A DNA stretch of 58,152 nt from a virus (Duplodnaviria; Caudoviricetes): IMG/VR virus record IMGVR_UViG_3300042988_001268, positions 1 through 58,152 of that record. The stretch is one strand, 5' to 3'. Below the pieces are notes generated by a model, which saw only the letters and a program-made list of their open reading frames with translations, did not search any database and was not told the DNA's origin. A program made the position numbers and the translations under genes. Below, one piece after another: positions 121-9,099 of the stretch; positions within the stretch are counted from its first letter, which is position 1, and every line of letters starts with the position of its first letter.

Positions 121-167
121 AGAGGGAACGGCCGCCCCTCTCTAGCATAGGCCAACCGAACGAAAGG
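121..167 (+). ncRNA. Pseudoknot-SD leader copy 1 (weak)
   Basis: AGAGGG/CCCTCT stem, 9-nt loop AACGGCCGC, partner GGCC 150-153, GAAAGG 162-167. Confidence 0.5.
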
Positions 168-174
168 CAAGGCA

Positions 175-402
175 ATGGCCCTTAATCTCTCCACCCTCGC
201 AAATCGCGCAGTCGACTCTATCGGCTATGCCTGCGCGGCGATCCTGTTTGTGGCGGTTATCGGCTGGCTCCCGGCCGGCATGATTGGCGCCGCCCTGGAA
301 TTCGCGGGAACGCCCGAAGGGCCAGCAATGGCTATTGGCTTTGCTGCCGTGGCTGTTTGGGGTTTTGTGAAGGCGCCCGCCGCGCTTGAAGGCCTGCTTT
401 AA
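175..402 (+). CDS. Small membrane protein (2 TM)
   Basis: GAAAGG SD, two hydrophobic segments. Confidence 0.75.
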   Translation: MALNLSTLANRAVDSIGYACAAILFVAVIGWLPAGMIGAALEFAGTPEGPAMAIGFAAVAVWGFVKAPAALEGLL

Positions 403-411
403 TCCCCTACG

Positions 412-461
412 GCGCGCCGCCTGCCAATCGGCGCGCATCTCTCCCCTTGGCAATCGAAAGG
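412..461 (+). ncRNA. Pseudoknot-SD leader copy 2
   Basis: GCGCGCCG/CGGCGCGC stem, loop CCTGCCAAT, partner TTGGCA 447-452, GAAAGG 456-461. Confidence 0.7.
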
Positions 462-469
462 GCCGGATC

Positions 470-763
470 ATGGCTATTCTCGCAAAGGTATATCGCAACG
501 GCATTAGCGCCACGGCGCCCGATGCAATGGGCGCGCGCGCCGTCACGATTGAAGCGGCGCCCGCGCCTTGCTTTACTGGCACGCTAGGCAAAGCGGCCGC
601 CTATCTAGAGCGCCTGCCGATCGGTCAATCGGTTGAGGTGCGCTATTACCGGAACGGGAAGTTTGCCGGTTTGCGCTCTTGTATGAACAAGCCAGCGCTA
701 TGGGATAGCTTGCGCGATGGCGCGCGGCGCCGTTCCATCCCTAGCATTCGGGCGGCCGCCTAA
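470..763 (+). CDS. Hypothetical protein
   Basis: ATG at 470 after SD; TAATG coupling to next gene. Confidence 0.7.
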   Translation: MAILAKVYRNGISATAPDAMGARAVTIEAAPAPCFTGTLGKAAAYLERLPIGQSVEVRYYRNGKFAGLRSCMNKPALWDSLRDGARRRSIPSIRAAA

Positions 764-915
764 TGTCCGCCGCGCTTCACCTTCTCGGCGCTTGCGTCCA
801 GCCCTTTGCCATTGTGCTGGGTGCCTATGCCCTAGCAGGCATCTGCAGGGACTGGCGCCGGGCTATCCCGACAATTCGCGCAATCCGCGCGCAGCTTGAA
901 AGGTTGAATCCATGA
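763..915 (+). CDS. 50-aa hydrophobic protein (not in ORF track)
   Basis: MSAALHLLGACVQPFAIVLGAYALAG...; TAATG overlap at start and ATGA overlap at end. Confidence 0.65.
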   Translation: MSAALHLLGACVQPFAIVLGAYALAGICRDWRRAIPTIRAIRAQLERLNP

Positions 916-1139
916 ACGTCCGGATTTTCATCGGCGCCGCCGCTTATGCCTGTATTGAGGAAAGCGGCCGGAAAACTGATATTCTGCTTTCCCCTGGAAA
1001 GGGCCCGATTGCCTCGCTTCGGGAATATGCGGAAAGCGAAAGGGCTCGAGCGCTTCGGATTCTGGAAATGGCGGCTCTTGCTGATAGGGCGGCCGATTGC
1101 CTGGAAAAGGAAAAGGCCGAATCTCCCATTGCAGCATAG
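912..1139 (+). CDS. Hypothetical protein
   Basis: GAAAGG SD, ATGA overlap. Confidence 0.7.
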   Translation: MNVRIFIGAAAYACIEESGRKTDILLSPGKGPIASLREYAESERARALRILEMAALADRAADCLEKEKAESPIAA

Positions 1140-1211
1140 GCCGAAACGCGCGGCCGATGTGTCGCGCGTCGCAAGGGATTGTGCGCCCCTTGCCTGACGA
1201 TGGCAGCACAA
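1140..1211 (+). ncRNA. Type II hammerhead ribozyme with loop I pseudoknot (HH1; leader copy 3)
   Basis: GCC-GAAA-CGCGCG..CGCGCG-TC^-GCAAGGG-ATTGTGCGC-CCCTTGC-CTGACGA-T-GGC-A-GCACAA; predicted cleavage after C1170. Confidence 0.9.
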
Positions 1212-1226
1212 GCGAAGGAAAGAGCC

Positions 1227-1676
1227 ATGGATAAGATAGGGCAGGCAATCGCCCGCGCGGCAGATGGACTCGAGCGCGGCTTTTGGTGGGAAGATACGCG
1301 CGGCGATAAGCTGGCTTGCGGCTGGCTTGTGGGCGCCTGTTTTTCGCCGGGGCCCGATGGCGGATATACGGCGCGCGCTGCTTTTGGCGAATTCTGGGCG
1401 CCCGCGGAATATCGCAATGATGGCGCGCGCGTATCGGAATCAGCCGATGAAAAGGGGCAGCGCCTAGGGCGCGCGGCCGCCGTTGCTGCAATGCGCGAAT
1501 TCGCCGCTATGGCGCCGATCGATCGCGCCGCGCGCGCCGCCTATGTAGAAGATTGCCGGCGCCATCCGCTTTATAATGACGGCCGGCCGCGCCGCGCTTG
1601 GGAAGCGCTGGGCGAAATTGAGCACGAATCGTGGCGGCGCAATCCATCGCCGCGCGACTGGAGCGCTGCAGCATGA
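1227..1676 (+). CDS. Hypothetical protein
   Basis: GAAGGA SD directly after HH1. Confidence 0.75.
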   Translation: MDKIGQAIARAADGLERGFWWEDTRGDKLACGWLVGACFSPGPDGGYTARAAFGEFWAPAEYRNDGARVSESADEKGQRLGRAAAVAAMREFAAMAPIDRAARAAYVEDCRRHPLYNDGRPRRAWEALGEIEHESWRRNPSPRDWSAAA

Positions 1677-8092: not shown

Positions 8093-8094
8093 GG

Positions 8095-8199
8095 CGAGGC
8101 ATGGTAAGCAAGGTCATTGGCAGATGCGGGTTCGAATCCCGTCAGGCTTAGCCGCACTGCTTGGCGGTCGCCTGTAGTTCAACGGTAGAACGGTCCTCG
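8095..8199 (+). ncRNA. Circularly permuted tRNA mimic 1 (T arm - closed acceptor stem - D arm; YrlA-like)
   Basis: T arm GCGGG-TTCGAAT-CCCGT 8126-8142; CAGGC/GCCTG; TA; D arm GTTC-AACGGTA-GAAC; closing CGAGG/CCTCG. Confidence 0.75.
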
Positions 8200-8279
8200 G
8201 GGGAGAACCGGGTTCGAATCCCGGCCGGCAGTGAAGCCTAAGCAGAGGTTGAGCCGGTAGCATAATGGTAATGCGCCCC
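8200..8279 (+). ncRNA. Circularly permuted tRNA mimic 2 (YrlA-like)
   Basis: T arm CCGGG-TTCGAAT-CCCGG 8208-8224; CCGGC/GCCGG; TA; D arm GCAT-AATGGTA-ATGC; closing GGGG/CCCC. Confidence 0.75.
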
Positions 8280-8338
8280 ATCCCCTACCGCACTCGCCCA
8301 CCCCTATCGCGGATTAGTAGGACAAAGGAAAACCCATC

Positions 8339-8596
8339 ATGGCTTACCCGGACCCCAAAGAAATGGAGGCCGCCCAGAATAGAGCGATGGAAGCTCTTTC
8401 GAGGGCGCGACGCGACTGCACTGAAATCATTGGCGGGACATATCGACGGCGCCCAGATCAGATGGATCGGGCGGATTGCGAATGGAAGTTGTCTCAATGC
8501 GAGGAAATCGCGCGGGATGTGCGTGCCCTAATCGAGCAGGCAGCTTCAGAGATCGGAAACACCCGGTGGGCCCCGCCGCCGTTTGCGAAGAACTAG
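8339..8596 (+). CDS. Hypothetical helical protein
   Basis: AAAGGA SD. Confidence 0.7.
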   Translation: MAYPDPKEMEAAQNRAMEALSRARRDCTEIIGGTYRRRPDQMDRADCEWKLSQCEEIARDVRALIEQAASEIGNTRWAPPPFAKN

Positions 8597-8660
8597 CCCT
8601 ACCGCCGGCGCGCACGGCCCTACCTTGCGCGCCGGACGGGGGAGGCGTATCGAATGCAGC

Positions 8661-8774
8661 GTGATGTGGCCTTGGCGGAATTGATAGACGCTGAAAGTCG
8701 CAAGGCAAAGCTGGACGGTCTGATGGCCGGAGGACCAGCGTAATCCGTGGTTTGAGTCCCGGAGGCCGCATCAC
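8661..8774 (+). ncRNA. Anticodon-less tRNA-like RNA with 12-bp extended acceptor stem
   Basis: GTGATGTGGCCT/AGGCCGCATCAC; Leu-type D arm GCGGAATTGATAGACGC; T arm CCGTGG-TTTGAGT-CCCGG; two hairpins replace the anticodon arm; no CCA. Confidence 0.72.
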
Positions 8775-8777
8775 ATA

Positions 8778-8814
8778 GCCGGATTGCCCGACCGGCCGCG
8801 AGAGAGGGCAGGAG
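8778..8814 (+). ncRNA. Pseudoknot-SD leader copy 9
   Basis: GCCGG/CCGGC stem, loop ATTGCCCGA, partner GGGCAG 8806-8811 overlapping AGGAG SD. Confidence 0.7.
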
Positions 8815-8823
8815 AACGAGACG

Positions 8824-9099
8824 ATGAAAGACGCATCCCAAGAGGAACTGGCCAAGGTTTATCTTGGCATCTGGCTAGTGAACCGCGAACTGTTCACCGC
8901 CTTCCGCGCTGGCAATCCCGCCATCACCGCGACGATGCTGGTGAACTCGGCGCTCCCCGCGCAGAACGTGTGGAAGATGCTCGACCATGAGACGCGCACC
9001 GCAACGCGCAAGCGTATCCGAATGGAATTCGGCGGACACTGGAAGACGATCAACCCGCTTGATGATGAGTGGTGGGCGGCGCGGGGGTCAGTTCAATGA
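8824..9099 (+). CDS. Hypothetical protein
   Basis: AGGAG SD; ATGA overlap with ligase gene. Confidence 0.75.
   Translation: MKDASQEELAKVYLGIWLVNRELFTAFRAGNPAITATMLVNSALPAQNVWKMLDHETRTATRKRIRMEFGGHWKTINPLDDEWWAARGSVQ

Follow-up and report, generated by a model that had tools for sequence, protein, structure and literature searches.

The window, meaning the whole stretch of DNA analysed here, is the entire 58,152-nucleotide (nt) virus record IMGVR_UViG_3300042988_001268 of a temperate, sphingomonad-type phage. It encodes a terminase, portal and major head proteins of lambda-type families, an integrase, a CI-like helix-turn-helix/S24 repressor (45479-46297) and a Ros/MucR regulator (52352-52744). 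Genes in 175-10351 point inward on the plus strand. Their function is mostly unassigned; genes for a DUF3560 protein, a methyltransferase and an ATP-dependent ligase are among them. The genes of this arm are called early because of their layout. Nine leaders in the arm share one fold: a stem with a 9-nt loop, a pseudoknot between this loop and a downstream strand, and a Shine-Dalgarno (SD) sequence. Two leaders are type II hammerhead ribozymes, and seven have no hammerhead core. Comparison with related phages gives good support for the core-less leader as a conserved structured RNA element.

Nine leaders of the early arm

An initial annotation had proposed nine stems with their loops and downstream hexamers before early genes, and all were found in place. 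The pseudoknot is of the H-type, with a 1-nt first loop and a second stem of 5-6 base pairs (bp), and ends 1-5 nt before the SD. The upstream sequences fall into four classes: promoter-like, hammerhead, long-helix and bare.

121-174, plus strand: copy 1, promoter-proximal core-less leader; stem 121-141, 4-bp pseudoknot with 150-153, SD 162-167
412-469, plus strand: copy 2, bare core-less leader directly after a stop codon; stem 412-436, pseudoknot strand 447-452, SD 456-461
1139-1226, plus strand: copy 3, type II hammerhead; stem I 1171-1193, pseudoknot strand 1206-1211, SD 1214-1218, predicted cut after C1170
1878-2018, plus strand: copy 4, long-helix type, short hairpin first; long helix (P0) 1908-1949, alternative hairpin 1945-1958, stem 1961-1987, pseudoknot strand 1997-2002, SD 2005-2010
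2628-2770, plus strand: copy 5, upstream of the DUF3560 gene, long-helix type; P0 2655-2698, alternative hairpin 2694-2708, stem 2716-2734, pseudoknot strand 2750-2755
4706-4864, plus strand: copy 6, long-helix variant; helix 4737-4783, separate hairpin 4784-4799, stem 4802-4829
5474-5564, plus strand: copy 7, type II hammerhead; stem I 5512-5534, pseudoknot strand 5545-5550, SD 5553-5557, predicted cut after C5511
6509-6634, plus strand: copy 8, long-helix type; P0 6530-6568, alternative hairpin 6565-6577, stem 6580-6604, pseudoknot strand 6614-6619, SD 6622-6626
8778-8823, plus strand: copy 9, core-less leader; stem 8778-8796, pseudoknot strand 8806-8811, GGAG

A strict scanner asked for a stem of at least 5 bp, six loop pairs and GAA(A)GG 1-4 nt downstream. 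On both strands of the 58,152 nt it returned five loci (copies 2, 3, 4, 7 and 8), all on the plus strand in 1-9000, and none elsewhere in the window. Copy 6 was added when one bulge was allowed, and copies 1, 9 and 5 by relaxed versions. The first relaxed scanner was discarded as noisy, with 197 matches vs 100-161 in controls. A covariance model of the kind suggested in the annotation was built from 33 core-less leaders, seven of them from the window, without a pseudoknot term. It ranked the nine copies as the nine best matches in the window and also gave hits in related phages. The two hammerhead copies, which were outside the training set, scored 34.8 bits (E 1.5e-5) and 17.2 bits (E 0.066); the next window match reaches 16.0 bits, hardly below copy 3. 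Copies 1, 5 and 9 are the weakest. Copy 1 has only four pseudoknot pairs, copy 5 has five of six together with a 5-bp stem and a 15-nt spacer, and copy 9 has GGAG in place of GAA(A)GG.

Copies 3 and 7 were matched by the Rfam family RF02276 (Hammerhead_II) at 1139-1212 (40.3 bits) and 5474-5551 (42.4 bits), above the gathering score of 37. GUC ends immediately before the stem in both, which puts the predicted cut at the first stem base, where the annotation had expected it. The cores read CUGACGA/GAAA/GUC in copy 3 and CUGAUGA/GAAA/GUC in copy 7, conforming to CUGANGA, GAAA and NUH. Both stem I and stem III are closed and stem II is open, as type II demands, and loop I pairs with the 3' tail over 6 bp, where at least 4 bp are expected. 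Copy 7 has a canonical core and no mispair beside it in stem II. In copy 3, an additional U stands between A9 and stem II, as is frequent in this phage family. The hammerheads are very probably active ribozymes, copy 3 with its additional U less surely so than copy 7. CTGANGA occurs within 1-12000 only at 1194 and 5535. Copies 1, 2, 4, 5, 6, 8 and 9 have neither a hammerhead core nor a stem III and no Rfam match down to E 10; they are not members of the type II hammerheads. The Rfam comparison thus returned a full match for copies 3 and 7 and none for the core-less copies.

Leaders and upstream elements in related phages

Relatives were collected from IMG/VR, metagenomes and genomes. Those with the ligase were recovered by a ligase alignment search; single-protein scans with the ligase or with the product of gene 6635 gave no match. 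From 80 ligase-bearing loci, 16 duplicates and 17 loci that were too short were removed, leaving 47 dereplicated arms including the window. The closest relative with a named record is L056, a contig of a Novosphingobium metagenome-assembled genome. No cultured relative was found by megablast against INPHARED, which gave no match, or by protein, with a best terminase identity of 26% and ligase matches of ~30%. Prophages of this family are present in 7/163 and 9/376 genomes of the two genera searched.

The 47 arms contain 61 pseudoknot-SD matches in 224 kb of sense strand, compared with 5 on the antisense strand and 6 in 386 kb elsewhere. For the alignment, 37 core-less leaders were picked by hand (29 via the scanner, 8 by eye), and removal of four near-duplicates left 33. 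In these leaders, 81.6% of the cells are paired, vs 35-44% in slid controls, percentages that are partly circular because some alignment members had been picked by the pairing scanner. Double-sided changes were present in 8/8 stem pairs and 4/6 pseudoknot pairs. A less circular test took candidates on the upstream hairpin alone, with pairing not required and noise included. Here, 13/25 candidates pair at 4.5 or more of 5 positions, with a mean of 1.9 with shuffled tails and 8.0 with permuted loops (p 0.0025). Core-less copies at one and the same slot carry the pairings TGCCC/GGGCA, TGCCT/AGGCA and TGCTC/GAGCA. The covariation of loop and hexamer, first proposed from the nine window copies, is supported across related phages by such compensatory changes. 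The comparison also bears out that the stem I/pseudoknot module of the hammerhead occurs without the catalytic core.

Applied to 66 loci, the covariance model gave 63 matches: 25 training sequences, 4 near-duplicates, 15 hammerheads, 18 further core-less leaders and 1 match outside an arm. By reading, 15 of the 18 held-out core-less matches have four or five of the five pseudoknot pairs. In four whole genomes with a prophage of this family, 16/17 model matches are in the prophage arm (150 candidates scored per genome); a fifth genome without such a prophage gave two matches, both with E above 0.3.

The window copies have counterparts. The slot of copy 1 is also filled in L056, L116, L172 and L171, with altered loop/partner pairs, and the type of copy 4 stands before the orthologous gene in L056, L172 and L183. 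In a related contig at depth 4.3, the changes in copy 2 are confined to the spacer (437, 441 and 443). Another single contig, at depth 3.7, has T6538C and A6560G in copy 8, which are compensatory in P0, and G6618A, which turns a pseudoknot U-G into U-A.

A sequence-pattern scan of IMG/VR found a 9-nt-loop stem in 0/45 loci, and its matches were mostly due to chance. Further pattern scans found the full fold in 5 of 114 matches examined among those listed, all five from this family; among these, no spread beyond the phage family was found. A look-alike with a 7-nt loop in L018, L033 and L034 was no hit of the covariance model. At L157 ~10000-10060 and L001 1000-1052, a hairpin of ~35-40 nt lies between SD and start codon. 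With this hairpin looped out, the SD spacing in L157 is back at 8 nt. A similar hairpin is present between SD and start codon of the T4 genes 25 and 38.

Hammerhead-like matches are also enriched, with 31 in 222 kb of sense strand of the 47 arms vs 2 in 911 kb of control sequence; 2 of the 31 seem spurious. Core variants with an intact pseudoknot were observed at L056:1687, L094:322, L160:11061 and L086:3218. Their features include CUGGCGA, CCGAUGA, CUGAGAA and a GUA cleavage triplet. These variants are possibly slow or dead ribozymes heading toward core-less leaders.

The conserved hairpin that the annotation saw before copies 4, 5, 6 and 8 is real and forms only the 3' end of a larger fold. 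The main feature lies upstream: a short GC hairpin is directly followed by the ~18-bp helix P0 and then by an alternative downstream pairing. In 19/21 minimum-energy folds (z -2.0 to -5.4), the AGGC strand of the 3' hairpin forms the base of P0 together with a GCC(T) lying upstream. In 11 leaders of similar length, P0 consists of 7 bp, a mismatch (9/11 by reading, C-C in 8) and 10 bp. Across these 11 leaders P0 is 93.5% paired, and 10/17 pairs show compensatory changes. A second GCC(T) 4-6 nt downstream allows a hairpin of 4-6 bp that is mutually exclusive with the base of P0. In the folding of predicted cut products, this downstream hairpin forms in most cases. A promoter was rejected as explanation for the long-helix element, with none of the 11 leaders carrying a promoter-like site 4-7 nt ahead of its stem. 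An intrinsic terminator was rejected as well; no U-tract terminator coincides with any P0.

Hammerhead and long helix replace each other at orthologous genes. Before the homologs of gene 6635, 22 loci have a long helix in nine cases, a hammerhead in seven, neither in three and a truncated sequence in three. After the methyltransferase gene, where copy 6 stands in the window, the 16 loci comprise five long helices, five hammerheads and six with neither; the family ligase is missing from five of these six. The DUF3560 gene is preceded by a long helix in the window, a hammerhead in L005 and a bare leader in L001, L006, L118 and L056. By reading, no slot has both hammerhead and long helix. Slot labels were assigned automatically, and three (L160, L003 and L138) were corrected by reading. 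The annotation's idea of interchangeable upstream elements is supported as mutual exclusion at orthologous genes; that the elements act as generators of 5' ends is a conjecture taken up below.

The spacer of copy 6 contains GATGATGA, similar to the hammerhead CUGAUGA. This suggests descent from a hammerhead with its upstream half replaced. In L006, 7078-7220 consists of the upstream half of one L001 leader and the downstream half of the next (L001 3781-4357), and the gene between the two L001 leaders is absent. The hybrid is consistent with recombination between leaders with loss of the intervening gene.

Promoter-like sites, probable DNA end and further features of the arm

Four further features of the arm are located at or between the leaders.

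1-45, plus strand: probable physical virion DNA end (cos region) with shared record starts; the arm with the leaders begins here
80-113, plus strand: promoter-like site of the arm; TTTACG-17-TAAGGC 7 nt before the stem, or TTTACT-18-TATATA 11 nt before it
8624-8652, plus strand: internal promoter-like site TTGCGC-17-TATCGA, a pattern shared with relatives
8660-8771, plus strand: tRNA-like insert with an 11-bp closing stem, D-like and T-like arms and two extra hairpins, ~6 nt after the promoter-like site

The promoter-like sequence that the annotation had noted before copy 1 stands as a candidate site at 80-113. A strict sigma-70 scan did not return it, and copy 1 itself is weak. The pattern TT[GT]-N16-18-TA ends 4-7 nt before the stem in 5/9 first leaders and 4/6 pre-ligase leaders of relatives, compared with 0/11 long-helix and 0/5 bare leaders. 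TTGCGC-17-TA has the same spacing in L056, L116 and L127. At copy 9, the order is promoter-like site, inserted tRNA-like RNA and leader. The insert begins at a probable transcription start. ARAGORN reported no tRNA, and Rfam nothing at 8660-8772 down to E 10. The tRNA mimic of the annotation holds as a tRNA-like fold read from the sequence. Its role as a generator of the 5' end does not: the insert is missing at the corresponding slot of L056, L116 and L127 and is therefore not needed. A related contig fuses a similar tRNA-like 5' half to the T arm at 8206. Two tandem units similar to YrlA, a Y RNA with the T arm before the D arm, lie at 8121-8281; their Rfam matches (E 0.003 and 0.011) are far under the gathering score, and no Ro60-like gene was found among the window proteins scanned.

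The window and the loci L086, L098 and L103 start at the identical base of a motif that is uninterrupted in 17 other loci. On the circular map, this base is ~19 kb from the terminase genes. Position 1 is a probable physical DNA end, a cos site. As in lambda biology, the leader arm would enter the cell first.

The composition of 1-9000 is unlike the remainder of the window. GTCG/CGAC and TCGT are depleted, CTAG and CTA codons are enriched, and CTA makes up 16/154 leucine codons vs 7/359 in structural genes. This possibly reflects restriction-site avoidance. In L116 (~3240-4660), an insertion element judged transposase-like from its sequence splits the gene behind one long-helix leader.

The motif CCCTAYC, extended CCCTAYCgNNGNH, occurs at 405-10570 on the plus strand, with 28 sites on the plus vs 2 on the minus strand in 1-10600. 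In the remaining 47.5 kb, there are none on the plus strand and six on the minus strand. Arms of relatives have 156 vs 6 per 100 kb. The sites are both intragenic and intergenic, and some fall in the loops of P0 and of hammerhead stem III. The sequence CCCCTAC that the annotation saw as the only element before copy 2 is present and is not special to this leader; it is one of the 28 sites, many of which are intragenic. CCCTAYC could be a repressor site akin to mycobacteriophage stoperators, an RNA-binding or nuclease site, or an entry or packaging signal. The Ros/MucR regulator and the CI-like repressor of the phage are candidate binders. A sigma-32-type -10 box was ruled out, with no -35 signal upstream of 245 sites.

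Proposed transcript processing, rival explanations and known systems

From the location and exchange of the leaders, we infer the following course. The arm would be transcribed as long messages from end-proximal and internal promoters. These would be cut into mRNAs of 1-3 genes at two interchangeable kinds of site. One is the type II hammerhead, whose predicted self-cleavage falls at the first base of stem I; the second would be protein-dependent: the ~18-bp helix stacked on the short hairpin, most likely cut by host RNase III. A cut near the mismatch would free the AGGC strand, which could pair with GCCU 4-6 nt downstream; this hairpin would close the new 5' end. Each product, and the primary transcript, would begin with the same compact H-type pseudoknot, shielding the 5' end from 5'-dependent decay and leaving the SD unpaired just behind. 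We consider this processing of the early transcript by hammerheads, or by a host nuclease at the long helix, evenly balanced between right and wrong.

Its parts differ in strength. The long helix probably is a cut site, with moderate confidence; it is argued to yield a 5' end because it is mutually replaceable with a self-cleaving RNA. RNase III falls slightly short of even confidence as the cutting enzyme. It needs ~11 bp from the cut, a length that P0 matches, and five sites are processed in the T7 early precursor; site rules are species-specific (PMC3867540, as far as the available part of the source goes). RNase III is encoded above cut-off in 4/4 sphingomonad genomes, three of them with related prophages. 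A full-length RNase J-like protein, below the curated cut-off, is likewise present in 4/4. A protective role is suggested by the pseudoknot at primary and processed ends, by these RNase J-like genes, by stem-loop pseudoknots that block RNase J1 (10.1101/262683) and by the higher stability of mRNAs with an occluded 5' end (PMC3997798). That protection is the chief role is a proposition that could fall either way. In the accessible account of the type II hammerhead, the pseudoknot forms without the remaining ribozyme (PMC3088659). It is rather unlikely that selection acts on a single pseudoknot 'cap', which either came from the hammerhead or was co-opted into it, and that the long helix is a new ribozyme or a cut-and-refold switch building an exonuclease-resistant 5' end.

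Several observations weigh against the processing of the early transcript. Pseudoknot covariation is modest and most copies have TGCCC/GGGCA; the outer two pairs fail in 18/33 and 11/33 leaders, and pseudoknot or stem is lost in 3/18 held-out matches. At the promoter, the stem of several relatives measures just 2-3 bp, and a leader is missing from some early genes. C138A in contigs of runs X1 and X4 disrupts one stem pair of copy 1. In the long-helix element, covariation of the downstream alternative hairpin is not significant in alignment A6, where 39/500 shuffles reach the value. A three-way change of all segments is found in L130, L116:6685 and L089 only, about two independent events, and the upstream partner strand is missing in copy 6. 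In folding without pseudoknots, computed SD accessibility clearly increases on cutting for copy 4 only, and unmasking of the SD by cleavage is not a general feature. The bare leaders (window copy 2, L001:1788, L056:2780 and L171:8745) show no visible cutter, nor was a promoter-like site present before any of the five bare leaders checked. The annotation's picture of a 5'-end generator before the stems needs correcting for such bare copies, which occur in several phages.

The bare copies require no cutter if the pseudoknot is a translation element, which insulates the SD from GC-rich upstream RNA, docks ribosomal protein S1 or serves an RNA-binding protein of the phage as shared operator; the long helix would then be an uncut 3' barrier or pause site for the gene upstream. 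This is a serious rival, above all for those copies, and we regard it overall as somewhat unlikely. In most copies, 1-5 nt separate the pseudoknot from the SD, the loop consensus varies less than pairing by itself would allow, and a 5' pseudoknot is the translational operator of T4 gene 32 (PMC3014915, in the part available). A translation element leaves unexplained why hammerhead and long helix exclude each other at one slot, why the geometry of 7+1+10 is fixed with a second GCC(T) copy, and why tandem pseudoknots at the promoter in L001, L006, L093 and L118 include a first unit without an SD behind. U-tract terminators are also absent at P0, a further point against this rival. The exclusion at one slot could also mean that the long-helix element is itself a new self-cleaving ribozyme, a three-way junction cutting just before the stem. 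It occupies the slot of the hammerhead, the same logic that found twister, twister sister, pistol and hatchet (PMC6765202, available part), several folds close a 3-bp junction around two helices, and Rfam has no match for it. However, the invariant bases are nearly all paired G and C, the junction loops are free to vary, and L001:4304 is a perfect long duplex that fits a nuclease for double-stranded RNA better; such a ribozyme is very improbable.

The core-less copies might instead be hammerhead remnants spread by leader recombination and kept as generic SD cassettes. The CUGAUGA-like spacer of copy 6 and the hybrid leader of L006 with its missing gene point that way, as does the gene shuffling driven by PeSL cassettes in T4-type phages (PMC2839356, in the portion available). 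Yet the stems are re-randomised and still paired, the loop length is constant at 9, pseudoknot pairs co-change in core-less copies at one slot, and natural variants spare or repair pairs. We regard mere remnants as improbable. A function of the folds in DNA, single-stranded during entry or as cruciforms, is extremely improbable: hammerhead cores make sense as RNA only, G-U pairs are tolerated, and the elements go together with an SD and a start codon in sense orientation. The arm does lie at the DNA end and carries DUF3560 and methyltransferase genes, kinds of gene known from plasmid leading regions.

If transcript processing holds, a ribozyme tertiary contact gains a second job after cleavage, and it is suggested that ribozyme and protein nuclease are interchangeable solutions. 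The leader would also provide a compact 5' stabiliser or insulator for sphingomonad engineering. The role of many hammerheads adjacent to phage genes was described as largely elusive in the accessible part of a 2019 review (PMC6765202). Here, the same gene stands behind a hammerhead, a long helix or neither while the pseudoknot is constant, which lets the idea of processing for stability or translation be tested on individual genes. Since prophages of the family occur in genomes of two genera, lysogens may be available.

Neither the core-less leader nor the long-helix element matched an Rfam 15 family in the window and nine related loci. SAM-II, preQ1, pistol, twister-type and RAGATH families had no Rfam match in the window either. 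No published description of a core-less leader was found in the literature as partially covered, and the supplements of PMC3088659 and PMC5737381 could bear on novelty.

Parts of the system resemble known ones, here compared with the accessible portions of the sources. The early precursor of T7 is cut by host RNase III at intergenic helices of an early polycistron, an action that is conjectural here, and with mismatches, cutting of one strand is favoured and a 3' hairpin remains; unlike here, no shared 5' pseudoknot or ribozyme alternative is mentioned in that part (PMC3867540). The T4/T2 gene 32 leader is an H-type pseudoknot in a phage leader, with a very stable mRNA and an RNase E site at -71. 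It serves one gene, begins 67 nt upstream of the start codon and is bound by gp32, whereas the leaders here stand at many genes beside the SD (PMC3014915). In the dianthovirus exonuclease-resistant RNA (xrRNA), a loop pairs with a 3' strand and stops 5'-3' exonucleases including RNase J1. This RNA depends on a ring around its 5' end and on conserved tertiary contacts, and comes from the 3' untranslated region of a plant RNA virus; for the phage leaders, the structure shown is an H-type secondary structure (10.1101/262683). PeSL cassettes are, like the leaders, repeated intergenic units among variable small genes where recombination deletes genes. They consist of promoter and terminator, whereas the leaders include ribozymes and carry a pseudoknot, without a U-tract (PMC2839356). 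A strong sigma-70 promoter plus terminator per copy, which defines PeSL, was not observed, with no terminator at the leaders.

The type II hammerheads of prophages (RF02276; Perreault et al. 2011, PMC3088659) have core, open stem II, pseudoknot and intergenic clustering as in copies 3 and 7. Their loop I/3'-tail pseudoknot is required for fast cleavage, and clustered prophage hammerheads were proposed to split transcripts into mRNAs of gene length. Both the hammerhead part of the annotation and the idea of transcript processing were thus already published. In the available text of that study, the pseudoknot serves catalysis only. Here, stem I, pseudoknot and SD form stand-alone modules, also at promoters, and are exchanged with the long helix. 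The new part is this core-less pseudoknot leader together with the long-helix exchange, confined so far to one uncultured phage family.

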